This document shows positions 9,651 through 22,624 of a stretch of DNA of 64,000 bases, in pieces (positions within the stretch are counted from its first letter, which is position 1; each line of letters opens with the position of its first letter). Made by a program: the position numbers and the translations under genes. The notes below the pieces were generated by a model that worked only from the letters and a program-made list of their open reading frames with translations, was not told the DNA's origin and searched no databases. Origin of the DNA: Escherichia coli (GTDB lineage: Bacteria; Pseudomonadota; Gammaproteobacteria; Enterobacterales; Enterobacteriaceae); the NCBI RefSeq assembly GCF_003018255.1, contig NZ_CP027440.1, one strand, 5' to 3'.

Positions 9651-10793
9651 TCAAATCTGCTTTTCATACAATCGGTAACGCTTGTACGGCTCCGCCCCAA
9701 TGCGTTCCAGCATGTTATTCATGCCTGTATTGGTTTCGAGGATCCATGACATCTCCAGCGCATCGATCTTCCGACGGGCAAACGGATCGCGTAAGGCTTC
9801 AATCAATAACAGCGCAATTACCGGGCCGATGCGGCTGAACTGATACTCGTCCCGCACGCCCATCAGCGGCACTCGCGCAGTTCGCACACCGCTGACTTTC
9901 AAACGCCACAGCAATTTTGCCCAGCCGAAGGGAAAGAGCGATCCGTTCAGATCGGCAATCGCCTCGTTGATGTTCGGCAAGCCAACAATAAACGCGCAGG
10001 GTGCAGAATCAATCTCAGCGATGTAGATCATATCGTCCGGCACCAGATATTTAAGTTGATCGCCCATGGTCGCGAATTCATGTTCGGTAAACGGCACAAA
10101 TCCCCAGTTGTGCTGCCAGCCAGAATTGAAAATCTCACGCAGGATCTGCATCTCTTCGGCAAACCGCTGGCGATTGATGCAGCGAATGGTCACTTTTTTG
10201 CGCACCTGATCCATCAGTTTTTTTAGCGCCGGAGAGAACGTGAGATCGGTTCGCTGCATCCACCACGCCAGTAAATCAATGCCTTTGTGATAACCCAGTT
10301 GTTCAATATGCGCGGCATACCACGGTTTGCCGTGTGGCATCATCGCACAGGGCGGAGTGTCAAAACCTTCAATCAGTAATCCGCTTTCCTGATTGATATT
10401 CAGGCTGAAAGGCCCGCTGATCTTATTTGCACCTTGTGACTTTAACCACGCTTCCGCTGCGCCAAACAACGCGGCAAAAACCTGCGGATCATCAATGGCA
10501 TCAATCATTCCGTAATGACCGGTATCTTCACCGTAACGCTCACGGTGCAAGGTATCGATTTGCGCGGTAATACGCCCAACTATCTGCCCCGCTTTTTTTG
10601 CCACCCACGCCTGCCAGATGATATGGTCCGTCCCCGGATTCTTCGCAGACAAATGCTCGCTGCGTTCAATGAATAAAGGGGGTATCCAGTTTGGATCATC
10701 GGGATAAAGTGATGACGGAAAAGCGATAAATGCCTTAAGGTCATTTTTATTAATTACTTTTTCAATTTTAATCATCAGCAGATCGCATTCCAT
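9651..10793 (-). CDS. yghO: Large GNAT-like acyltransferase (YghO), 380 aa; candidate N-acyltransferase of the adjacent lipid module
   Basis: Full-length ORF convergent with glcC and divergent from the acyl-AMP ligase operon; position matches yghO in K-12; GNAT-like assignment from sequence recognition only. Confidence 0.7.
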   Translation of the reverse strand: MECDLLMIKIEKVINKNDLKAFIAFPSSLYPDDPNWIPPLFIERSEHLSAKNPGTDHIIWQAWVAKKAGQIVGRITAQIDTLHRERYGEDTGHYGMIDAIDDPQVFAALFGAAEAWLKSQGANKISGPFSLNINQESGLLIEGFDTPPCAMMPHGKPWYAAHIEQLGYHKGIDLLAWWMQRTDLTFSPALKKLMDQVRKKVTIRCINRQRFAEEMQILREIFNSGWQHNWGFVPFTEHEFATMGDQLKYLVPDDMIYIAEIDSAPCAFIVGLPNINEAIADLNGSLFPFGWAKLLWRLKVSGVRTARVPLMGVRDEYQFSRIGPVIALLLIEALRDPFARRKIDALEMSWILETNTGMNNMLERIGAEPYKRYRLYEKQI

Positions 10794-11164
10794 ATCTCTG
10801 TGGATAACAAATAATTAACGGTGAAAAACAGGTTGCAACAGCAACGAACGGCATCTTAATAATCAACCCAATGAATACAAACAAAGAATAAATAGTATTT
10901 ATTAATGATTACGATAAGGTCAGAGACTACACAGAAGCGCCACAATGCCTCTTGTCGATTTAAGGCGACCGGACAAGGCTCCTTCTTAATATATTCATAA
11001 ATTAAATATCATTCACAATAAAAACAAAAAAACTCAAACATATTATTTAAATCAATGTTCATTTTCACACCGATGAAAATACTATCTCATTTATCTTTTA
11101 TGCCTATATAATCCACCGCATTATTGTCATTTTATTTTGGATATCCAATTTTTTCGTGGTGTAT

Positions 11165-12889
11165 ATGTCTAATAAAATCTTTACGCATTCCCTACCTATG
11201 CGCTATGCCGATTTTCCAACGCTGGTTGATGCTTTGGACTACGCCGCTCTGAGTAGCGCCGGAATGAATTTTTATGACAGACGTTGCCAACTTGAAGATC
11301 AACTGGAATATCAGACGTTAAAAGCGCGTTCCGAAGCTGGTGCGAAAAGGTTGTTATCGCTGAACCTGAAAAAAGGCGATCGCGTGGCGCTGATTGCCGA
11401 AACGAGTAGCGGGTTTGTAGAGGCTTTTTTTGCCTGCCAGTATGCCGGCTTAGTCGCCGTCCCGTTGGCGATTCCAATGGGCGTCGGTCAGCGGGATTCC
11501 TGGAGCGCCAAACTGCAGGGTTTACTGGCAAGTTGCCAGCCCGCAGCCATTATCACTGGTGATGAGTGGTTGCCACTGGTCAATGCCGCGACGCATAACA
11601 ACAACCCCGAATTACATGTTTTAAGCCACGCCTGGTTTAAGGCATTACCGGAAGCCGATGTTGCGCTCCAGCGTCCAGTTCCAAACGATATCGCCTACCT
11701 CCAGTACACCTCCGGCAGCACCCGTTTTCCCCGTGGCGTCATTATCACCCATCACGAAGTGATGGCTAATCTACGTGCTATAAGCCACGATGGCATTAAA
11801 TTACGCCCTGGCGACCGCTGCGTCTCCTGGCTGCCTTTCTACCATGATATGGGACTGGTCGGCTTTCTCCTGACCCCCGTCGCCACGCAGCTTTCAGTAG
11901 ATTATTTGCGCACTCAGGATTTTGCCATGCGTCCTCTGCAATGGCTTAAATTGATCAGTAAAAATCGCGGCACCGTTTCCGTTGCACCGCCGTTTGGCTA
12001 TGAATTGTGCCAGCGCCGCGTGAATGAAAAAGATCTCGCTGAACTGGATCTTTCCTGCTGGCGCGTCGCTGGTATTGGAGCAGAACCGATCTCCGCAGAA
12101 CAACTCCATCAATTCGCTGAATGTTTTCGTCAGGTTAACTTTGACGATAAAACTTTCATGCCGTGCTACGGACTGGCAGAAAATGCGCTGGCTGTCAGCT
12201 TCTCTGATGAAGCCTGCGGGGTTGTGGTTAACGAAGTGGATCGCGACATCCTCGAATACCAGGGTAAAGCCGTCGCGCCGGGTGCTGAAACACGCGCCGT
12301 ATCGACTTTCGTCAACTGCGGTAAAGCGTTGCCGGAACATGGCATTGAAATCCGCAATGAAGCAGATATACCTGTCGCGGAACGTGTGGTAGGCCATATT
12401 TGCATCTCCGGCCCCAGCCTGATGAGCGGGTACTTTGGCGACCAGGTTTCGCAAGACGAGATTGCCGCGACGGGCTGGTTAGACACCGGCGACCTTGGTT
12501 ATCTGCTGGACGGTTATCTGTATGTCACCGGACGCATTAAAGATCTGATTATTATTCGTGGCCGTAATATCTGGCCGCAGGATATTGAATACATTGCGGA
12601 ACAGGAACCGGAAATTCATTCTGGCGATGCGATTGCTTTTGTTACCGCCCAGGAAAAAATCATTTTGCAGATCCAGTGTCGGATCAGCGACGAAGAACGT
12701 CGCGGGCAGCTTATCCACGCGCTGGCAGCTCGGATCCAAAGCGAATTTGGCGTTACCGCGGATATCGATCTGTTGCCGCCCCACAGTATTCCCCGAACAT
12801 CCTCCGGCAAGCCTGCCCGTGCGGAAGCGAAAAAACGTTATCAGAAGGCTTATGCTGCCAGTCTTCATGTGCAGGAATCCCTGGCATGA
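11165..12889 (+). CDS. Adenylate-forming fatty acyl-AMP ligase / acyl-ACP synthetase-like enzyme, about 574 aa
   Basis: AMP-binding signature (YTSGSTRFPRGV), size typical of acyl-AMP ligases; start uncertain (track GTG at 11156, first ATG at 11165); stop overlaps next gene start (ATGA). Confidence 0.8.
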   Translation: MSNKIFTHSLPMRYADFPTLVDALDYAALSSAGMNFYDRRCQLEDQLEYQTLKARSEAGAKRLLSLNLKKGDRVALIAETSSGFVEAFFACQYAGLVAVPLAIPMGVGQRDSWSAKLQGLLASCQPAAIITGDEWLPLVNAATHNNNPELHVLSHAWFKALPEADVALQRPVPNDIAYLQYTSGSTRFPRGVIITHHEVMANLRAISHDGIKLRPGDRCVSWLPFYHDMGLVGFLLTPVATQLSVDYLRTQDFAMRPLQWLKLISKNRGTVSVAPPFGYELCQRRVNEKDLAELDLSCWRVAGIGAEPISAEQLHQFAECFRQVNFDDKTFMPCYGLAENALAVSFSDEACGVVVNEVDRDILEYQGKAVAPGAETRAVSTFVNCGKALPEHGIEIRNEADIPVAERVVGHICISGPSLMSGYFGDQVSQDEIAATGWLDTGDLGYLLDGYLYVTGRIKDLIIIRGRNIWPQDIEYIAEQEPEIHSGDAIAFVTAQEKIILQIQCRISDEERRGQLIHALAARIQSEFGVTADIDLLPPHSIPRTSSGKPARAEAKKRYQKAYAASLHVQESLA

Positions 12890-13800
12890 ATCAAACTGTC
12901 GCGGTGACGGGCGCTACCGGGTTTATCGGTAAATATATTATTGATAACCTGCTCGCCCGCGGCTTTCACGTTCGCGCATTAACGCGTACTGCCCGCGCTC
13001 ACGTCAATGATAATCTCATCTGGGTGCGCGGTTCGCTGGAAGATACACATTCGCTTAGCGAACTGGTTGCCGGAGCCAGCGCGGTGGTCCATTGCGCCGG
13101 ACAAGTGCGCGGACACAAAGAAGAGATTTTTACCCGCTGTAACGTTGACGGCAGCCTGCGCCTGATGCAAGCGGCAAAAGAGAGCGGCTTTTGCCAACGT
13201 TTTCTGTTTATCTCTTCGCTGGCGGCGCGCCATCCCGAACTCTCCTGGTACGCAAATTCCAAACACGTCGCCGAACAACGACTGATCGCAATGGCTGACG
13301 AAATTACGCTGGGCATTTTTCGCCCGACAGCCGTGTATGGTCCCGGCGATAAAGAGTTAAAACCGCTGTTTGACTGGATGCTGCGCGGCCTGCTGCCACG
13401 ACTTGGTGCGCCAGATACACAACTCTCTTTCCTGCACGTCACCGATTTTGCGCAAGCAGTGGGTCAGTGGTTAAACGCCGAAACTGTACAGACGCAAACC
13501 TATGAATTATGCGATGGCGTCGCTGGCGGCTATGACTGGCAACGCGTACGACAGCTTGCCGCCGAAGCCCGTTGTGGTTCTGTGCGGATGGTTGGCATTC
13601 CTCTGCCGCTACTCACCTGCCTTGCGGATATCAGTACTGCGTTGAGTCGCCTGGCAGGTAAAGAACCTATGCTGACCCGCTCGAAAATTCGTGAATTAAC
13701 CCACGCCGACTGGTCGGCAAATAATAACCGTATTTCTGAAGATATTAATTGGTTTCCCGGGATTAGCCTGGAACACGCATTACGCAACGGGCTATTTTGA
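12886..13800 (+). CDS. NAD(P)-dependent epimerase/dehydratase-family reductase, 304 aa
   Basis: N-terminal Rossmann motif VTGATGFIGKYI; start at ATG 12886 overlapping upstream stop (ATGA); track ORF from 12676 is an out-of-operon extension. Confidence 0.8.
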   Translation: MNQTVAVTGATGFIGKYIIDNLLARGFHVRALTRTARAHVNDNLIWVRGSLEDTHSLSELVAGASAVVHCAGQVRGHKEEIFTRCNVDGSLRLMQAAKESGFCQRFLFISSLAARHPELSWYANSKHVAEQRLIAMADEITLGIFRPTAVYGPGDKELKPLFDWMLRGLLPRLGAPDTQLSFLHVTDFAQAVGQWLNAETVQTQTYELCDGVAGGYDWQRVRQLAAEARCGSVRMVGIPLPLLTCLADISTALSRLAGKEPMLTRSKIRELTHADWSANNNRISEDINWFPGISLEHALRNGLF

Positions 13801-13831
13801 TTGTCTTGTTTAAAGGTGTGTTAACGTTTCT

Positions 13832-14080
13832 ATGGTAAATCGTGAAATAGTAATGGATTACATCCTTTCCTGTTTACAGGATTTGGTCGAAAACGGTGTG
13901 GAAATTAAGCCCGACAGCGATCTCGTCAACGATCTTGGCCTGGAGTCGATCAAAGTGATGGATCTCTTAATGATGCTGGAAGACAGATTCGATATTTCCA
14001 TTCCTATTAATATTCTGCTGGATGTCAAAACCCCTGCGCAATTAATGGAAACTCTACTTCCATGGCTGGAGAATAAATAA
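13832..14080 (+). CDS. Dedicated acyl carrier protein, 82 aa
   Basis: Small acidic protein with phosphopantetheine-attachment-like motif DLGLESIKVMDL; stop overlaps next start (TAATG). Confidence 0.75.
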   Translation: MVNREIVMDYILSCLQDLVENGVEIKPDSDLVNDLGLESIKVMDLLMMLEDRFDISIPINILLDVKTPAQLMETLLPWLENK

Positions 14081-15252
14081 TGGGGCTATACGATAAATAT
14101 GCGCGCCTTGCTGGCGAGCGCCTGCAATTTAGTGACAACGGGTTAACACCATTTGGCACCTGTATTGATGAAGTGTATTCCGCCACCGAAGGCCGGATCG
14201 GCAATAAAAAAGTGATTCTGGCCGGGACCAATAATTATCTCGGTTTAACCTTTAATCATGATGCTATCCGCGAAGGTCAGGCAGCGTTAGCGGCCCAAGG
14301 CACTGGCACCACCGGTTCTCGTATGGCAAACGGCAGTTATGCGCCGCATCTGGCGTTAGAGAAAGAGATTGCCGAGTTTTTCAATCGCCCTACCGCTATC
14401 GTTTTTTCAACCGGTTATACCGCTAATTTAGGTGTCATCAGCGCACTTGCCGACCATAACGCCGTGGTGTTACTGGATGCCGACAGCCACGCCAGTATTT
14501 ATGACGCCTGTTCTCTCGGCGGCGCAGAGATTATTCGTTTCCGCCATAATGACGTCAACGATCTGGAACGGCGCATGGTCCGCCTCGGTGAACGGGCGAA
14601 AGAGGCGATTATTATCGTTGAAGGCATCTACAGTATGCTCGGTGACGTTGCGCCGCTGGCAGAAATTGTTGATATCAAACGTCGTCTCGGTGGTTATTTG
14701 ATTGTCGATGAAGCACATTCGTTTGGCGTGTTAGGCGCAACAGGCCGCGGACTGGTTGAAGCCGTTGGCGTTGAAGACGACGTGGATATTATCGTCGGCA
14801 CCTTCAGTAAAAGTTTGGCTTCCATTGGTGGTTTTGCCGTGGGTTCAGAAGCGATGGAAGTGCTGCGCTACGGCAGCCGCCCGTATATTTTTACCGCCTC
14901 TCCTTCTCCGTCCTGCATTGCGACCGTGCGCTCGTCGTTAAGAACCATTTCCACACAACCAGAGCTGCGGCAAAAACTGATGGATAACGCCAACAATCTG
15001 TATGACGGTCTGCAAAAACTGGGTTATGAGTTAAGTTCACATATTAGCCCGGTAGTGCCAGTAATAATCGGTTCGAAAGAGGAAGGTTTACGCATCTGGC
15101 GCGAGCTTATTTCGCTGGGCGTTTATGTGAATCTTATCCTGCCACCTGCCGCGCCTGCAGGCATCACGCTGCTGCGCTGTAGCGTAAACGCTGCCCACAG
15201 TCGTGAGCAAATCGATGCCATCATTCAGGCATTTGCTACTCTGAAGCAGTAA
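14080..15252 (+). CDS. PLP-dependent alpha-oxoamine synthase, serine-palmitoyltransferase-like, 390 aa
   Basis: Class-II aminotransferase fold with PLP-lysine motif GTFSKSLASIGG; distinct from BioF and Kbl; translationally coupled to the ACP gene. Confidence 0.8.
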   Translation: MGLYDKYARLAGERLQFSDNGLTPFGTCIDEVYSATEGRIGNKKVILAGTNNYLGLTFNHDAIREGQAALAAQGTGTTGSRMANGSYAPHLALEKEIAEFFNRPTAIVFSTGYTANLGVISALADHNAVVLLDADSHASIYDACSLGGAEIIRFRHNDVNDLERRMVRLGERAKEAIIIVEGIYSMLGDVAPLAEIVDIKRRLGGYLIVDEAHSFGVLGATGRGLVEAVGVEDDVDIIVGTFSKSLASIGGFAVGSEAMEVLRYGSRPYIFTASPSPSCIATVRSSLRTISTQPELRQKLMDNANNLYDGLQKLGYELSSHISPVVPVIIGSKEEGLRIWRELISLGVYVNLILPPAAPAGITLLRCSVNAAHSREQIDAIIQAFATLKQ

Positions 15253-15257
15253 TGTGA

Positions 15258-15292
15258 GCCCGCTGTGGTGTTGCGCCACGGCGGGTTTAATG
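15258..15292. terminator. Convergent hairpin (cccgctgtgg...ccacggcggg) with T-rich tail between the synthase gene and the LptG-like gene
   Basis: About 10-bp stem read from sequence, followed by tttaatg. Confidence 0.4.
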
Positions 15293-16366
15293 TTGTCTGT
15301 CATACCAATACACCAGGCTCAACGCCACCAGCACAAACGCTACCGGTAAACCGAGCGCGGTAACAGGTGCGCTCAACGCAAATAACAATCCCAGATTGAC
15401 CATGATTTGATAGCTGATCCAGGTGAGTAAGCCAACGATGACGCCTACAGCGAGACGGCTACCCATCCCAGGCGAACGCGGGGCGCTAAAGGTAAACGGC
15501 ACAGCCAGCAAAATCATCGCCAGGGTCAAGATGGGTTGTCCCAGTTTTTCCCACAGTGCAAGGCGGTATTCGCTGCTGGGTTGCCCGGTTTCCTGCAAAT
15601 AATGGATGTAATGATTAAGTTGACGGACAGAAAAAGTATTTCCCGGCATCGATAACTCTTCAAGATTCATACTGGTGAAGGCCGATTGCCAGGGAAGATT
15701 ATCAGATGTTTCCTGCGTTTCTTTGCCATTCAGCCATTTTTTATGATTCACACCATGCAGGATCCACGTTTTGTCGTCTTCAATGGTAGCACTGCGCGCA
15801 TAAATGTAGGATTCGAGCGAGAGATCATCGCGGTAATGAAATATCTCCACGTCCACCGGCTGGCCCTGCTCGTTCAGCGATTTCACCGTCACAAATTCAT
15901 TACCACGCCTGGCCCACAGCATATTGCCGGTAATGTCATCGTCCTCCCCCAACGCAGTGGCAGTCGATTTGATTTGCAGCGCCTGTTGCTGCAATGGCGA
16001 CGCCACCCACTCATCTATCGCGCCTAATGAAACAGTCCACAATATCCCGGCAACCAGCGCCACCAGTGCAATACGGAAGATAGAAAACCCCGTGCTGCGA
16101 ATGGCGGTAAGCTCACTGTTTTTCGATAACTGCCCCAGGCCGACAATCCCTCCCAATAAGGCGATAAACGGCGAAAGTTCGACCAGTGTGCGCGGTAAGG
16201 TCATCAGCACCACCAGCACCGCCTGAGTCCAGCGATAACCACCCGGGCTGACATCATCCAGTTCGTTAATCAGGTTGAAGGTGGTAAAAAGCGGCAGCAA
16301 TAGCCCTGCGGCGGCGGCAAAACCGAGAAAGAGATGACGGATTAAATAGCGACTGAAAACATTCAT
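15287..16366 (-). CDS. LptG/LptF-family (YjgP/YjgQ) permease paralog, about 359 aa
   Basis: N-terminus MNVFSRYLIRHLF typical of LptF/G permeases; trimmed to ATG at 16366 overlapping upstream stop (ATGA). Confidence 0.75.
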   Translation of the reverse strand: MNVFSRYLIRHLFLGFAAAAGLLLPLFTTFNLINELDDVSPGGYRWTQAVLVVLMTLPRTLVELSPFIALLGGIVGLGQLSKNSELTAIRSTGFSIFRIALVALVAGILWTVSLGAIDEWVASPLQQQALQIKSTATALGEDDDITGNMLWARRGNEFVTVKSLNEQGQPVDVEIFHYRDDLSLESYIYARSATIEDDKTWILHGVNHKKWLNGKETQETSDNLPWQSAFTSMNLEELSMPGNTFSVRQLNHYIHYLQETGQPSSEYRLALWEKLGQPILTLAMILLAVPFTFSAPRSPGMGSRLAVGVIVGLLTWISYQIMVNLGLLFALSAPVTALGLPVAFVLVALSLVYWYDRQH

Positions 16367-17433
16367 CGGGAAAATTTCTGCAGCAAAGAGAAGTCGCGTG
16401 CGACCAACATCAGCAGGCCCATTAGCATGAGTCCGGGTACTAACCACAAACCAGGAATGAGGGGAATCGCGCCGTTAGCCACCAGCGTACGGCAGACGTC
16501 GCCGCCATAAAAAATGGCAACAAACAGCAACGTCAGTGGCAATAACGTTGAAAATCGCCCTTGCCGCGGTTTTACCCGACTTAATGAAATGGCCAGCAGC
16601 GCCATCAACAATGCTGTCAGGCCACGGCTTTGTCGCCATTGCAGTTCGGCATGATCGGCAGGAAAGGCGGAGCGCGCCAGCTCCGTGACCGATTTTGCTT
16701 TGCGTTTGACGTTAGGGCTTTGATCCAGCGGATTCAGATGTAATTGCAGATTACGGTAGATCTGTTCGTTGTCGTCACGCCCCTGATGATCGAGAAGATA
16801 GGCGGTCCCGTTATGCAACATAACGGTCGGTTTCTCAGGTGATGGGTCAACCACATCAACCGAACGGGCGCGGAAAATGCGGGTTCGATTAGCAGTAGAA
16901 GTATAAATCAGCGCATCAGTCAGGCGATTATTATCCTGATCAACCGTCTGCGAAAGGATCATTCGTCCGTTATCGTTAGTGTTAAATTTCTTTGCCCGCA
17001 ACTGGCGAACATCCAGCTCCGACTGTGACTGTTGCTCCAGTTGATAAATCTGCGCATAAGCCCACGGACGACCATACATCGACAGAAGGGTGACAAAAAT
17101 ACTTAGCGGTATCGCCAGATAAAGAACGGCTTTGTACAAGCGTCCCGGACTGCCCCCCGCCGCAGAGATAGCGGTAATTTCCGAGTCGGTATACATCTGC
17201 CCTAGCGTCACGCCAACTGACACATACAGTCCAACAGGTAACAACATCTCCAGTGCAATCAGCACTTTGTAGAAAACGATATCCAGCACAACATCAAGAG
17301 CTAATGTCCCATTTGCCGCTTCGGTCAGATAACGCTGTGCGGAGTAGCTGGCGAAAATAAAGATCAGAAAACCGACGATAATCAGCACCAGACGGCGCGT
17401 ACCACGCATGATGTAGTGTTCAACCAGCTTCAT
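16363..17433 (-). CDS. LptF/LptG-family (YjgP/YjgQ) permease paralog, 356 aa
   Basis: Polytopic membrane protein with LptF/G-like N-terminus; operon partner of 15287-16366. Confidence 0.75.
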   Translation of the reverse strand: MKLVEHYIMRGTRRLVLIIVGFLIFIFASYSAQRYLTEAANGTLALDVVLDIVFYKVLIALEMLLPVGLYVSVGVTLGQMYTDSEITAISAAGGSPGRLYKAVLYLAIPLSIFVTLLSMYGRPWAYAQIYQLEQQSQSELDVRQLRAKKFNTNDNGRMILSQTVDQDNNRLTDALIYTSTANRTRIFRARSVDVVDPSPEKPTVMLHNGTAYLLDHQGRDDNEQIYRNLQLHLNPLDQSPNVKRKAKSVTELARSAFPADHAELQWRQSRGLTALLMALLAISLSRVKPRQGRFSTLLPLTLLFVAIFYGGDVCRTLVANGAIPLIPGLWLVPGLMLMGLLMLVARDFSLLQKFSR

Positions 17434-17462
17434 CTCACTAACGCCCTCAATCCTTTGAATTT

Positions 17463-18026
17463 TTATTCATTGATCAGCTTCTGCGCCAGCGCAATGACAT
17501 GATCTACCTCTTCCGGCGTCAGGCTGCCGTCCTTTGCCCACTGAATTTGCCCGGTTTTATTCAGCACCAGAATGGTTGAACTCTGCTCCTGCAAGTGCCA
17601 GGCAACGCGTCCCTGTCCATTGCCGTCAATAACGAATTGCGCCCATGGATAGCGGCGTTTATTTTTTTCGATTTTGCCAACGACAAAATAGCCGGTACCA
17701 AAGATGGCATCATCAGTGTTCACAATGGTGGTGGGCTGAAAACGATCCTGCGGAAAGTTTGCCGCTTCAACTGCTTTAATTAACAGTGAGTTCTTTTTCT
17801 TCGCCGACTTACGCCCGGCGATATACTGAATAATGCGAACTTTTCCCGCCAATTGGGTGCTGTTCCACTTTTGGTAGTGAATTTCGTCGTCGCTATTCCG
17901 AAGCAGCTCGCCGCCTTCCTGGATATAAACGGGGGTAACCGTTTTGCCAGTGACGAAATTGTGTGCCTGCACACCCGGGGCTAAGAGCATGATAATCAGC
18001 GCAATAATCAAACGAGATGACATCAT
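17463..18026 (-). CDS. Secreted/periplasmic protein with cleavable signal peptide, possibly YtfJ-like, 187 aa
   Basis: N-terminal signal peptide (...LLAPGVQA/HN); family assignment tentative. Confidence 0.55.
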   Translation of the reverse strand: MMSSRLIIALIIMLLAPGVQAHNFVTGKTVTPVYIQEGGELLRNSDDEIHYQKWNSTQLAGKVRIIQYIAGRKSAKKKNSLLIKAVEAANFPQDRFQPTTIVNTDDAIFGTGYFVVGKIEKNKRRYPWAQFVIDGNGQGRVAWHLQEQSSTILVLNKTGQIQWAKDGSLTPEEVDHVIALAQKLINE

Positions 18027-18034
18027 TGCTCCGG

Positions 18035-18859
18035 TTATAGCGGAAAACGCGAAATCAGCAGTTCTAAGCGCTGGCGAATATCGCTATCCAGCGCCATCGG
18101 TGCATCATACGACTGGCGGTTTTCCATATCATCCGCCACCATGTCGTCGTGTTTATCCCCCATCAGGCCATTAATGGCGGCGAGGAAGCGGGAAATCTGT
18201 AACGCTTCTTTATTTTCAGGATCAAGCGATCTTAGGGTGTCGTAATAAGAAACCTGCTGGCTGATGATTTTTCGCACATCATGAAATTCCCTGCCGGTTA
18301 GTCGCGGTTTGGCAATTATCTCTTTCAGGGTATGCATTTGCTTTTGCCGATAGGCAATAAAACCGCTTACGCTTTCTAACTGGCTATGGCGTAATGAATA
18401 GTTCACCAACGACCAGACCGGAGAGCTTAAATAAACCCGTAACAGGTTGCCGTAATACGACACAATATTTTTCTTACCGTTACGAAAGCCGTCCTGAAAA
18501 CGCCCCAAAAAAACGGTCGTTTTGCCGAATAAAAATCCGGCCTGATGCTTCTTTAAATACAGCCGTTGCGCAAAACGCAGGTGCTTGTAGCGCGCTCGCA
18601 TGTATTTAAATTGTTTGCGCTCATCAGCAGTCAGCTCATCGCCTTTGGCCTGTTTGCATATTAAACGCAGTAACTCCTGGCGATTGACGCCATTGAGCCA
18701 GAATTGCAGGCATAACGCGTAATTATCATGGATGATTTCGGTGGTACAACTTAGTGCGATAGTCGGCGGCAAACTGACCTGTGCATCAACGACATCATCT
18801 TCTTCAATCGCAACAAATAGACGCTCGCTCGCCTCTAGCGGGAAATATTTTCTCATCAT
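18035..18859 (-). CDS. Hypothetical protein, 274 aa
   Basis: Full-length ORF in operon; start overlaps the stop of yghQ by 1 nt; no domain recognised. Confidence 0.6.
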   Translation of the reverse strand: MMRKYFPLEASERLFVAIEEDDVVDAQVSLPPTIALSCTTEIIHDNYALCLQFWLNGVNRQELLRLICKQAKGDELTADERKQFKYMRARYKHLRFAQRLYLKKHQAGFLFGKTTVFLGRFQDGFRNGKKNIVSYYGNLLRVYLSSPVWSLVNYSLRHSQLESVSGFIAYRQKQMHTLKEIIAKPRLTGREFHDVRKIISQQVSYYDTLRSLDPENKEALQISRFLAAINGLMGDKHDDMVADDMENRQSYDAPMALDSDIRQRLELLISRFPL

Positions 18860-20208
18860 CAGGATTTCTCTCCGGCTGCGTTATAAAGCAAGGAATGGCG
18901 CTGAAAAAATGCCTTTAAGGTCGGAATTAGCGAAAGCACCACATCCAGACATTGACCACCGAAATAAGCAAACGCTGCTCCCAGCACGCCAAACAGATGA
19001 CAGAACATGAACAGCAATACGATGTAGCCGATTGAGGCGATGGTTTGCGCCACGAGAAAAGCGCGCTGTTTTCCCGCCATCAATAGCAATGACTCCTGAG
19101 GGAAGCCCAGCATCGAGATCACAATTGCGCCCAGCATCACCTGAATCAGGTCATACGCTTCGAGATACTTAACGCCAAACACCAGCGAAATGAGCGGCTT
19201 GCCGACAATCAACACCGCGAGCGCCACCAGAATACCGATTCCGCCCGCCAGTAAACCTGACTTCACGCCTAACAACCACGGTCTGGTGGTACGCGGATCT
19301 AAACGCATCACCTCTGGGTAAAAACTTTTGCCCAGTAAACCCGCTGGCGTTCCGGCGGCGTCGAAGAATGTCATGGCGATTTTAAATAACCCGGCGGCAG
19401 CGGGTCCTAACACGATCCCCACCAACACTGTGCTGCACGAATTACGCGCCGACCAGATGGAATGGGCAATGTTGGTTGACCAGACAAAACTCCACGCGCC
19501 TTTGATGTGTCGGGCAGACTCAAACAGATTCAATTTGAACGCGTTATGGATATTTCTGCGGCGTAATTCACGTGCGGCAAACCACCAGTACATGGTGCCG
19601 CCAACAAGATTCGAGGCGTACCAGGCAATAACAAAACCCGCAAAACCAAAGTCAAAATACCAGGCAACGACGCTCCCCGCTGCGCGCAGAAAAGGTTTCG
19701 TCGCTTGCTGTACAGCAATTAGATCGAAGCGATCTACCGCACGCAGAATGCCGGTCGGCGTGGAGGAAGCCATTGAAGGAATGAGCGTGCAATACAGCGC
19801 TGCCAGCCAAAAGCTTTGGTCATCCAGACCTAATGAATGGGAAAGAAAAGGGAGTAAGGCAATGCCGCCGACAATCGCCACCGCGCCGCTGACGATATCC
19901 AGCGAGAAGGAAAATGAGACGACATTGCGGAATTGCTGCGGATTATTGTTGGTTAATGCTGGTGTTCCGTACTGAACCACCAGCTGCCATGTCTGAAACT
20001 TAATAAAATCGCTGATCGACTTGGCGTACGATTGTACAATCACCAGTACGCCAAACATGGCGGGCGTCATCCCTTTACCGGCACACGAGAGCGCCAACAG
20101 ACCCAGCAAAGCGCTCACGACATTACTGGAGCCTAACCAGGCGCTATTGCGAATAATGGTGCGAAACGCGCCATCTGCAAACCAATGTTTGATGTTAAAA
20201 CCCGCCAA
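18859..20208 (-). CDS. yghQ: MOP-superfamily flippase/exporter, full-length 449 aa
   Basis: Polytopic membrane ORF at the K-12 yghQ position; K-12 YghQ recalled as 355 aa, suggesting a 3'-truncated K-12 copy. Confidence 0.75.
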   Translation of the reverse strand: MAGFNIKHWFADGAFRTIIRNSAWLGSSNVVSALLGLLALSCAGKGMTPAMFGVLVIVQSYAKSISDFIKFQTWQLVVQYGTPALTNNNPQQFRNVVSFSFSLDIVSGAVAIVGGIALLPFLSHSLGLDDQSFWLAALYCTLIPSMASSTPTGILRAVDRFDLIAVQQATKPFLRAAGSVVAWYFDFGFAGFVIAWYASNLVGGTMYWWFAARELRRRNIHNAFKLNLFESARHIKGAWSFVWSTNIAHSIWSARNSCSTVLVGIVLGPAAAGLFKIAMTFFDAAGTPAGLLGKSFYPEVMRLDPRTTRPWLLGVKSGLLAGGIGILVALAVLIVGKPLISLVFGVKYLEAYDLIQVMLGAIVISMLGFPQESLLLMAGKQRAFLVAQTIASIGYIVLLFMFCHLFGVLGAAFAYFGGQCLDVVLSLIPTLKAFFQRHSLLYNAAGEKS

Positions 20209-20253: not shown

Positions 20254-21012
20254 TTAAGTTAAACTTCGGCGGTCAGAAACGATGGCAACCAGAGAAACCG
20301 CCTTCTGTGCCTGTTCCAGCACTTCGCTGTAGGGCGCTCTGGAATCAATCTCAAGAATTTTTGTGCCGTTATAGCCAATCGTCGACATGACGCCGATTTT
20401 GTCCTGCAGCTCGGCATAGTCATGGTCAGGCTTGCGGGAGATGGCAGTATCAATATCAATCCCCAAACGAATGATTAATTCAGGACGGTATTGCGCCATT
20501 TGTTGGTATAAACGCCGTTCGCGCTGCGCCAGAAACATGCTGATTTTCCCGGTCGCACGTTCGACGCCGATCCCCGGTCCGTCATAATAAAAGCCCGAAA
20601 TTTCAGCCTGCGGGAAGCGATCGCTGACCACCAGAACGCCACTTTGCGCCAGTCGCTGAACCTTGCGTAGATTCGCCATTCTTCGCAGCGAGAAGCAGTA
20701 CATAATCACCGCCGCCCATAGCGCTGGAGATTTGGTTTTCATGCTTTGGGTTTTCGAGGATTTGGCCGCCAGTCGCCGTTCGAGCCAGACGCCAACCAAC
20801 GGCAATCGTTTGATTTTGTCGCCGTCTTCGCCCGAGAGCAGCCCCAGATAGCGCCGCTCGGTTTGCCAGTGTTGTTGCAGCGATTTCACCAGGTCGGTGG
20901 TCAGTGTGGATTTACCGGTGCCATCACACCCGACCACCGCAATCAGCCCCGGAATGTAGTTGGGCTGCGGCGCGGTTGTACTATTAACAGTTTGTGTTTG
21001 TAGTGCGTCCAT
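20254..21012 (-). CDS. yghR: P-loop kinase, thymidylate/deoxynucleoside-kinase-like, 252 aa
   Basis: Walker A GCDGTGKST and downstream SDRFPQ motif; length matches K-12 YghR. Confidence 0.85.
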   Translation of the reverse strand: MDALQTQTVNSTTAPQPNYIPGLIAVVGCDGTGKSTLTTDLVKSLQQHWQTERRYLGLLSGEDGDKIKRLPLVGVWLERRLAAKSSKTQSMKTKSPALWAAVIMYCFSLRRMANLRKVQRLAQSGVLVVSDRFPQAEISGFYYDGPGIGVERATGKISMFLAQRERRLYQQMAQYRPELIIRLGIDIDTAISRKPDHDYAELQDKIGVMSTIGYNGTKILEIDSRAPYSEVLEQAQKAVSLVAIVSDRRSLT

Positions 21013-21043: not shown

Positions 21044-21757
21044 TCAGGAAAGCGCGGCGTGAATTGCGCGTAGTGACGCTTGCAGAATTTCATCGGCGGG
21101 TTGCCGACCATCCAGTTCAAGGATCTTTGCACCATTAAATGTCAGTTGCGGCGTAACGGCGATTTTTTCCTGTAACGCCGCCAGTTGGTGGTCAGGTTTA
21201 CGCGCAAACGCGGTTTGTTCATCAATGCCAAGACGAATCAACAATACGGGCAAATAAGACGCCATCCATTGGTACAGCTTCAGCTCGCGCTGCCTTAACA
21301 TTTTTATCCAACCGTTACCGCCCGTGGTTTTTGCCAATTGCGGGCCATCAAAGCGAAAACCCGGCACTTCAACCTGCGGGTAGCGGTCGGTGATGAGCAG
21401 ATAGCCTTGCTGGCTTTTACACAACATTTTGCGAAACTTGTACGCCCGCCAGCAGGAAAGCAGATAGATAACCAGCGCAGTAATATTGCCAGGTGGTGTG
21501 GAGGGCTTTTCGTGCACATGTGCCGCTTTACTTCGCAGATAACGCCCAAAAGGTGCGCCAATAACAGGGAGCTGTGAAATCCATTCGCCAATTCGCCCGG
21601 ACGATTGCCCGAGATAAATGTGTTCTGTTGGCATTGTTGCTGCCAGTTCATTTACCAGGCTTGCCGTGAGGGTCGATTTACCTGAACCATCACATCCTAC
21701 AATGGCAATAACACGCACTGGCGTGGAATTAATTATTGACATATTACGTTGATTCAC
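21044..21757 (-). CDS. yghS: P-loop kinase paralog, 237 aa
   Basis: Walker A GCDGSGKST and TDRYPQ motif; paralog of yghR; length matches K-12. Confidence 0.85.
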   Translation of the reverse strand: MNQRNMSIINSTPVRVIAIVGCDGSGKSTLTASLVNELAATMPTEHIYLGQSSGRIGEWISQLPVIGAPFGRYLRSKAAHVHEKPSTPPGNITALVIYLLSCWRAYKFRKMLCKSQQGYLLITDRYPQVEVPGFRFDGPQLAKTTGGNGWIKMLRQRELKLYQWMASYLPVLLIRLGIDEQTAFARKPDHQLAALQEKIAVTPQLTFNGAKILELDGRQPADEILQASLRAIHAALS

Positions 21758-21931: not shown

Positions 21932-22624
21932 ATGCAGTCAATAATACCTCCATTAATTGCCGTTATTGGTAGCGATGGTTCAGGCAAGTCAACGGTGTGT
22001 GAACATCTTATTACCGTTGTCGAAAAATATGGTGCTGCCGAAAGAGTTCATTTAGGAAAACAGGCCGGAAATGTCGGTCGTGCAGTGACAAAATTACCGT
22101 TGATGGGAAAGTCTCTGCACAAGACTATTGAAAAAAATGAAGTGAAAACGGCAAAAAAATTGCCGGGTCCGGTTCCGGCCCTGGTGATCACCGCTTTCGT
22201 CGCCCGCCGACTGTTACGCTTTCGTCATATGCTCGCCTGTCGTCGTCGCGGGCTGATTGTCTTAACCGATCGTTATCCTCAGGACCAAATTCCTGGCGCT
22301 TACGATGGTACGGTGTTCCCACCTAACGTTGAAGGCGGCCGGTTTGTCTCATGGCTGGCAAGCCAGGAACGTAAAGCATTTCACTGGATGGCGAGCCATA
22401 AGCCTGATCTGGTCATCAAACTCAATGTTGACCTTGAAGTTGCCTGCGCGCGTAAACCCGACCATAAACGGGAATCGCTGGCGAGGAAGATTGCCATAAC
22501 GCCACAGTTAACCTTTGGCGGTGCACAACTGGTTGATATCGATGCTAATCAGCCACTGGAAAAGGTGCTGGTTGATGCAGAAAAAGCGATTACGGATTTT
22601 ATGACCGCGCGTGGTTATCACTAG
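21932..22624 (+). CDS. yghT: P-loop kinase paralog, 230 aa
   Basis: Walker [10 protein letters not shown] and TDRYPQ motif; divergent from yghS; length matches K-12. Confidence 0.85.

Follow-up and report, generated by a model that had tools for sequence, protein, structure and literature searches.

A second LptF/LptG-type permease pair in the ceramide locus of Escherichia coli, a probable sphingolipid extractor

Introduction

Why would Escherichia coli carry, beside genes for ceramide synthesis, a second copy of the LptF/LptG permease pair, the first of which is essential for the export of lipopolysaccharide (LPS)? The question is raised by a 64-kb segment of the E. coli chromosome (the whole stretch analysed here, hereafter the window), which lies in the glcDC-yghO ... 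yghQRST-pitB-gss region and in which the two additional permease genes are referred to as lptF2 and lptG2. The structure, genetics and inhibitors of the Lpt system are best developed in E. coli. The route by which sphingolipids reach the outer membrane (OM) was open until very recently, and the answer that involves LptF2 and LptG2 comes from one preprint and one organism. We propose that lptF2 and lptG2 encode the membrane subunits of an LptB-powered extractor dedicated to the sphingolipid of the locus, a reading to which we attach a probability of roughly 0.7. An original prediction, drawn from the sequence of the window, had already pointed to a dedicated lipid extractor and had considered that, as far as was known, no such pairing was characterised. 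The second part of this statement is out of date, since the pairing had been proposed in 2024 (PMC11324152) and has been tested in Caulobacter (10.64898/2026.04.12.717747). The finding is therefore correct yet not novel, because the mechanism, including the borrowing of LptB, is a published model. The E. coli pair is itself pictured in the literature and no new concept is added here to that model; the remaining interest lies in the operon partners specific to the Enterobacterales and in the lipid product.

Two permeases of the LptF/LptG family

Both genes are intact and lie on the minus strand, lptF2 (16363..17433, 356 aa) being the upstream member and lptG2 (15287..16366, 359 aa from its ATG) the second. 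The pair spans 2147 bp and is found at 100% identity in many complete genomes. The open frame of lptG2 extends to a GTG at 16447, and the ATG is retained as its start because orthologue lengths and the RefSeq annotation favour it. The two genes overlap, as had been predicted, through an ATGA stop/start junction at 16363..16366 on the minus strand (TCAT on the plus strand), which is kept in 60 of 70 related loci and suggests translational coupling. Their assignment to the YjgP/YjgQ family is equally well founded. LptF2 reaches 319.8 bits with TIGR04407 (LptF; cut-off 230) and only 68.9 bits with the LptG model, while LptG2 reaches 310.1 bits with TIGR04408 (LptG; cut-off 240) and only 88.1 bits with the LptF model; judged from these profile matches, membership in the LptF/LptG family (YjgP/YjgQ; PF03739) is far beyond chance. 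The AlphaFold2 models, with a mean confidence (pLDDT) of 86 for LptF2 and 82 for LptG2, both display six transmembrane (TM) helices; TM2 is followed by a short coupling helix, and a beta-jellyroll separates TM3 from TM4. In both paralogues this last element corresponds to a block of strands at residues ~150-230, flanked by helices on both sides and predicted to be periplasmic. The best Foldseek matches in the PDB are LptF chains for LptF2 (TM-score up to 0.82) and LptG chains for LptG2 (up to 0.84).

Linkage to ceramide-synthesis genes

The lipid-synthesis module that had been noted beside the pair is a ceramide module, and the five bacterial ceramide-synthesis genes are all present in the window. 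Four of them form a plus-strand series convergent with lptG2: aasR (11165..12889), for a fatty acyl-AMP ligase/acyl-AcpR synthetase (NF006624, 867 bits); cerR (12886..13800), for an NAD-dependent epimerase-family reductase, which is epi (ECD_02852) in PMC9386255; acpR (13832..14080), for a specialised acyl carrier protein (ACP) recognised by a profile match; and spt (14080..15252), for serine palmitoyltransferase (NF047599, 597.9 bits against a cut-off of 500). Beyond them, on the minus strand, yghO (9651..10793) encodes a putative bacterial ceramide synthase (N-acyltransferase, CerS), which is aca (ECD_02850) in PMC9386255; it has no Pfam match and is 49% identical to the gene in the cerS position of a distant cluster. 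In E. coli BL21, where the ceramide genes are ECD_02850-02854, AasR, AcpR and Spt are active, Spt having been found active in vitro and in vivo, and AcpR bears a 4'-phosphopantetheine (PMC9386255). The end of spt and the end of lptG2 are separated by 35 nt, and a GC-rich hairpin with a 16-bp stem (15255..15289), detected by a consensus scan only, lies between the two stop codons; it looks like a bidirectional terminator dividing the synthesis and transport operons. On its other side the pair closes a minus-strand string of seven genes, yghS-yghR-yghQ-orf274-ytfJ2-lptF2-lptG2, with gaps of at most 45 nt.

The co-occurrence of the pair with these genes was evaluated by comparing a 10-sequence alignment of Enterobacterales LptF2 with 100,044 genomes, each representing one species, which gave 80 loci. 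Their gene content was scored by tblastn with all proteins of the E. coli locus, ceramide genes being sought within 10 kb. The loci come from Escherichia, Pseudocitrobacter, Citrobacter, Hafnia, Shimwellia, Pluralibacter, Mangrovibacter and Serratia, alongside Sodalis, Rahnella, Erwinia, Pantoea, Tatumella, Rosenbergiella, Cedecea and Klebsiella indica; further loci belong to Pseudomonas, Azotobacter, Azomonas, a betaproteobacterium, Nitrosomonas and Salinisphaera, and others to metagenome-assembled genomes (MAGs), several of them gammaproteobacterial and some Desulfuromonadales/deltaproteobacterial. Over all 80 loci, spt was found in 66, and 70 possess one or more of the five ceramide genes. 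Where both flanks are full (~9 kb or more on each side; 54 loci), spt was found in 52 and a ceramide gene in all 54. A flank is truncated in each of the ten loci that lack a ceramide gene. Nitrosomonas accounts for the two full-flank loci devoid of spt; there the pair follows cerS and spt is located elsewhere, as published. The unlinking of the pair from the synthase module, which the original prediction had named as an outcome that would speak against it, was not observed. The two permease genes are adjacent in every locus (0-188 bp apart), and several families of the Enterobacterales have orthologues of equal length that are coupled by ATGA as well. Two relatives at a greater distance (35-38% identity; metagenomic/MAG contigs) likewise reside in complete spt clusters, composed of genes for an ATP-binding cassette (ABC) exporter, Spt, an ACP, an epimerase, an AMP-ligase, CerS, a nucleotidyltransferase, LptF and LptG.

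A separate observation concerns the locus of 'Martelella alba' BGMRC 2031 (L031), labelled as an alphaproteobacterium. Its cluster is Enterobacterales-like (64-78% identity), which points to a possible mislabelling or contamination of the assembly.

Relationship with the canonical pair

The pair was expected to be additional to the essential lptFG genes, and this is the case. Of 5426 complete E. coli genomes, 5425 contain the canonical lptF-lptG genes (b4261/b4262 in K-12) and 4131 contain lptF2-lptG2, the latter being intact at >=95% identity in 4105; ~24% of the genomes lack the second pair. LptF2 is 29% identical to LptF of K-12, and LptG2 28% identical to its LptG. More broadly, the E. coli LptF2 is 24-30% identical to canonical LptF and 53% identical to LptF2 of Pseudomonas luteola and Azotobacter vinelandii. 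In a neighbour-joining (NJ) tree, whose canonical sample consisted of E. coli and Pseudomonas aeruginosa only, the spt-linked LptF2 proteins split from canonical LptF (bootstrap 65 and 77) and the LptG2 proteins from canonical LptG (42 and 99).

The two systems share PF03739, the fold, the F-then-G gene order, the coupling glutamates and several phosphate-binding basic residues. They differ in that the canonical LptB2FGC system (LptF b4261, LptG b4262) is essential and its permease genes linked to pepA, whereas the second pair is accessory and linked to ceramide genes. Both pairs are named 'LPS export ABC transporter permease LptF/LptG' by RefSeq/PGAP, because the paralogues pass the equivalog cut-offs, and since they share the canonical labels, ~76% of E. 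coli genomes possess two genes per name. This naming hides the distinction between the pairs, and the label on the second one is probably a functional over-annotation.

About three quarters of E. coli strains, including BL21 and the uropathogenic UTI89, carry the second pair; K-12 does not. In K-12 MG1655 an IS5 element (insH9) replaces the stretch from the 5' end of yghO to the middle of yghQ (L003; MG1655 3129043-3132408 compared with window 9651-20208), so that aasR, cerR, acpR, spt, lptG2, lptF2, ytfJ2, orf274 and the 5' part of yghQ are missing. The standard laboratory strain is therefore devoid of the whole sphingolipid module. A recent foreign origin of the locus was considered and rejected, there being no compositional sign of it (GC ~0.50-0.53 across the locus).

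Truncated and fused variants of the pair exist in some assemblies. A YtfJ2-LptF2 fusion of 553 aa is predicted in a few of them (P0001, P0002, P0006); the 30-nt spacer is in frame, and loss of the ytfJ2 stop codon therefore fuses the two proteins. Mutation or an error of sequencing is the probable cause, since the topology of such a fusion would be inconsistent.

Coupling helices, substrate cavity and the missing ATPase

No cognate ATPase had been noticed near the pair, and none was detected: tblastn (E<=1e-3) over the whole 64-kb window returned no LptB-like gene, and tblastn for LptC and LptA homologues in the window was likewise negative. No linked stand-alone LptB-like ATPase accompanies the pair in any of the 80 LptF2 loci, and each E. 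coli genome contains one full-length lptB. YghR, YghS and YghT were considered as the missing ATPase and rejected, as they have a P-loop only, with no ABC signature and no ABC_tran match. The LptB-like matches in other loci were also set aside; rather than LptB paralogues, they are fused exporters of the MsbA/HepA type (~580 residues) or unrelated transporters at a distance of 7-10 kb.

In the canonical complex, the coupling-helix glutamates LptF E84 and LptG E88 dock into a groove of LptB and mediate assembly (PMC5082905). The docking glutamate is E85 in both E. coli paralogues and is invariant in 19/19 LptF2 and 19/19 LptG2 sequences. The coupling-helix positions at which changes cause defects (LptF 80, 84, 90 and 91; LptG 83, 84, 88, 89, 95 and 96; PMC5082905) are identical in the E. 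coli LptF2/LptG2 at seven of ten, the three others being conservative changes. From this conservation we infer that LptF2 and LptG2 of E. coli would form a complex with LptB.

The residues of the substrate cavity were compared with the LPS contacts seen in the Shigella LptB2FG-LPS structure (PMC6744409). The equivalents of LptF R33 and K317 and of LptG K62 and R136 are still basic in most LptF2/LptG2. The position of LptG K34 is occupied by N, D or E in 17/19 LptG2 (N31 in E. coli), and that of R133 is mostly hydrophobic (L130 in E. coli), the inner-core contacts being lost. These features fit a smaller, still anionic lipid, and the presumed substrate would have two acyl chains where LPS has six. 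The argument is nevertheless weak, because the canonical LptG of P. aeruginosa is also devoid of K34, K40 and K41: it has A/N/D at the positions that are N/D/D in LptG2, and the replacement of these three lysines was consequently rejected as proof of a new substrate. The dN/dS ratio is 0.05-0.09 for lptF2 and lptG2 in comparison with two other Escherichia species, similar to that of spt and cerS, and on this measure the pair is under strong purifying selection.

Comparison with the Caulobacter system

The closest functional precedent is that of Caulobacter crescentus, in which CCNA_01214/CCNA_01213 (= CC_1156/CC_1155) likewise form a second LptF/LptG pair beside the canonical one. Padilla-Gómez et al. 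(2024) named CC_1168, CC_1156 and CC_1155 LptC2, LptF2 and LptG2, and proposed that, with the flippase candidate CC_1166, they carry phosphosphingolipids to the OM (PMC11324152). Uchendu, Isom and Klein (bioRxiv, April 2026) subsequently reported that deletion of lptC2, lptF2 and lptG2 requires a delta-spt or delta-cpgB background, and that LptF2 and LptG2 co-purify and both bind the sole LptB by pull-down, LptC2 not being co-purified with them (10.64898/2026.04.12.717747). The same authors find lptF2/lptG2 in many alpha- and gammaproteobacterial sphingolipid loci and draw the locus of E. coli UTI89 as homologous in their Figure 2B (10.64898/2026.04.12.717747). The Caulobacter and E. coli pairs are alike in lying inside an spt/cerS sphingolipid cluster that has no dedicated lptB, and a Polysacc_synt-family flippase candidate belongs to both clusters, CC_1166 in Caulobacter and YghQ in E. 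coli (IPR002797; PMC11324152 S1 Text). The relationship between the two would rest on this shared cluster membership, on gene order and on architecture. They differ in that Caulobacter has LptC2; E. coli lacks it and has instead YtfJ2, Orf274 and YghR/S/T.

The clusters of P. luteola and A. vinelandii (L051 and L053; PMC11324152 Fig. 7) are closer to that of E. coli, with 53% identity for LptF2 and 47-48% for LptG2. The pair is located there downstream of cerS, after a gap of ~1.7 kb, and shows the same 4-bp overlap as in E. coli. The order in A. vinelandii is cerS, CC_1153, CC_1152, F2, G2, cpgA-C (PMC11324152), the genes 3' of lptG2 being assigned as cpgA/B/C orthologues (PMC11324152 S2E). 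Both clusters carry cpgABC-type genes for the head group and an MsbA/HepA-like exporter next to spt, and lack YtfJ2, Orf274 and YghQ. Comparison of the A. vinelandii genes (L053 12216-21071) with the 64-kb window of E. coli showed that cpgABC, CC_1152 and CC_1153 are without a homologue in it. As far as gene content can tell, ceramide phosphoglycerate formed via the cpgABC route is excluded as the E. coli lipid.

A model for sphingolipid extraction and its alternatives

In the model that we favour, ceramide would be made at the cytoplasmic face of the inner membrane (IM) and would then gain a head group, before YghQ, the MOP-family protein of the same operon, would probably flip the lipid across the IM. 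The lipid would subsequently enter the cavity of an LptF2-LptG2 heterodimer, where two copies of LptB, bound to the conserved coupling helices, would hydrolyse ATP and push it into the periplasmic beta-jellyrolls. From there it would probably continue via the shared LptC/LptA/LptDE bridge to the OM. For E. coli we infer which lipid is transported and in which direction, that LptB is used, and all downstream steps. The suggestion that the pair is a dedicated lipid extractor borrowing LptB is supported by the linkage to ceramide genes, the lack of a linked LptB paralogue, the invariant glutamates, the purifying selection and, by analogy, the Caulobacter experiments.

Several points weigh against this model. 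A native E. coli sphingolipid is reported nowhere in the searched literature, and the experimental support for such a pair comes from Caulobacter, so that it would apply to E. coli by analogy only. The similarity to the Caulobacter proteins is no closer than to canonical LptFG (the A. vinelandii/P. luteola proteins are only 24-25% identical to CC_1156/CC_1155; PMC11324152 S2E/F), and the transfer of function therefore rests on synteny and architecture. Since the E. coli cluster is devoid of cpgABC, CC_1152 and CC_1153, its substrate must differ from the Caulobacter lipid. The pair is moreover dispensable, because the genomes that lack it, K-12 among them, belong to strains that grow normally. 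The separation of the F2 and G2 clades has moderate support (bootstrap 65 and 42, with two canonical species sampled). Finally, a Competibacterales MAG (L089 10001-12324) with 34% LptF2 identity has neither spt nor cerS within 10 kb, and at this level of identity the spt-linked clade may blur into the canonical LptFG of other lineages.

Four other explanations were weighed. The pair might be a redundant or specialised LPS exporter, devoted for instance to a modified lipid A/core or to a stress-specific form of LPS. Such a function would be in keeping with the equivalog cut-offs that both proteins exceed, with the RefSeq annotation and with the basic residues retained at the lipid A phosphate contacts LptF R33 and K317 and LptG K62 and R136 (roles according to PMC6744409). 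However, the two proteins share only 28-29% identity with the canonical ones, the 54 full-flank loci are linked to ceramide genes and not to LPS genes, the inner-core contacts and R133 are lost together with K34, a position at which K34E is lethal in canonical LptG, and K-12 produces and exports its LPS without the pair; an LPS exporter is accordingly highly unlikely. One could also imagine that the pair exports a non-sphingolipid glycolipid made by yghQ, yghRST and orf274, the proximity of spt in E. coli being incidental. The pair indeed belongs to the yghS-yghR-yghQ-orf274-ytfJ2 operon, with spt convergent, and RefSeq calls YghQ a 'lipopolysaccharide biosynthesis protein'. Yet the Pseudomonadales and distant lineages maintain the cerS/spt linkage although YtfJ2, Orf274 and YghQ are missing, and the Caulobacter sphingolipid cluster possesses a Polysacc_synt-family flippase candidate as well, which leaves little room for a glycolipid.

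A locus that is conserved yet silent or in decay in E. coli, and that presently plays no part in transport, would agree with its absence from 24% of complete genomes, the IS5 deletion in K-12, the truncated and fused variants and the lack of a native sphingolipid in the searched literature. This we regard as no likelier than the glycolipid, given that the genes are intact in 4105 genomes, that their dN/dS values are as low as those of spt and cerS, and that ATGA-coupled orthologues of equal length extend across several Enterobacterales families. The last alternative retains a sphingolipid extractor and replaces either LptB with another ATPase or the LptC/A/DE bridge with another route, such as one via the YtfJ-family protein. 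It would account for the window being devoid of LptC2, LptA2 and LptB2, for the ytfJ2 gene directly 5' of lptF2 in 34/46 Enterobacterales loci and for the failure of Caulobacter LptC2 to co-purify with LptF2/LptG2. Against it stand the near-canonical coupling helices with both glutamates invariant, the pull-down of LptB by the Caulobacter proteins, the preservation of both beta-jellyroll domains and the lack of ABC signatures in YghR/S/T, and it is the least probable of the four.

If the LptB-powered sphingolipid extractor exists as proposed, LptB would serve two permease pairs in most natural E. coli, which would bear on antibiotics targeted at LptB/LptFG and on envelope homeostasis. A surface sphingolipid never described in E. 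coli would also follow, and it could matter for the interaction with the host.

Operon partners in the Enterobacterales

The genes upstream of lptF2 distinguish the Enterobacterales loci from the others. The first of them, ytfJ2 (17463..18026, minus strand), lies 29 nt upstream of lptF2 and encodes a YtfJ-family protein of 187 aa (TIGR01626, 212.5 bits), predicted to be exported, whose N-terminus resembles a signal peptide. It is found in 46/47 Enterobacterales loci, and in 34 of these 46 it is directly 5' of lptF2 on the same strand; YtfJ2 could act with the extractor as its periplasmic partner. Next to it, orf274 (18035..18859, minus strand) encodes an orphan protein of 274 aa that is conserved without a database match, NCBIfam, Pfam and PDB searches, including one with a 16-sequence profile, having returned none. 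Orf274 is present in 43/47 Enterobacterales loci and is under purifying selection (dN/dS ~0.07). Sequence and profile searches of the PDB with YtfJ2, Orf274 and YghS gave no relative.

The flippase candidate yghQ (18859..20208, minus strand; 449 aa) belongs to the MOP/Polysacc_synt family (PF01943, E=2.7e-8; NF007773); it occurs in 41/47 Enterobacterales loci and is truncated in K-12. Beyond it lie genes for three paralogous P-loop proteins: yghR (20254..21012, minus strand), the product of which is weakly similar to dTMP kinase; yghS (21044..21757, minus strand), probably the first gene of the minus-strand operon; and the divergently transcribed yghT (21932..22624, plus strand). The three proteins are 34-44% identical to one another, their similarity to dTMP kinase being weak, and are found in 33-36 of the 47 Enterobacterales loci as well as in five Pseudomonas loci. 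They are candidates for the chemistry of the head group. YtfJ2, Orf274 and YghQ are missing from 18/18 Pseudomonadales loci and from nearly all other loci outside the Enterobacterales.

In one Pseudomonas MAG (L050), a second yghS-yghR-yghT set is ~70% identical to that of E. coli, the LptF2 of this locus being 53% identical. This level of similarity hints that the yghS-yghR-yghT module of L050 may have spread by lateral transfer.

It can be hypothesised, tentatively, that the Enterobacterales export sphingolipids by a variant of the pathway of their own, and not by a copy of the Caulobacter one, because the operon lacks the known ceramide head-group genes (cpgABC, CC_1152 and CC_1153) and LptC2 and possesses the P-loop trio, Orf274 and YtfJ2. 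We regard this as a possibility with the odds against it. If it were true, most E. coli would make a surface-exposed, undescribed sphingolipid with a new head group, an extractor of the Lpt type would have the YtfJ-family protein as a new accessory in the periplasm, and two extractors would share LptB, except in K-12, the strain of Lpt studies.

In the clusters of Pseudomonas, Azotobacter and several other gammaproteobacteria, a ~580-aa fused MsbA/HepA-like ABC exporter adjoins spt or lptG2; examples are located in L053 (693-2453, minus strand), L073 (12175-13941, plus strand), L087 (434-2128) and L088 (13532-15301). The Enterobacterales possess YghQ in its stead, and the two proteins are distinct flippase candidates for one pathway.

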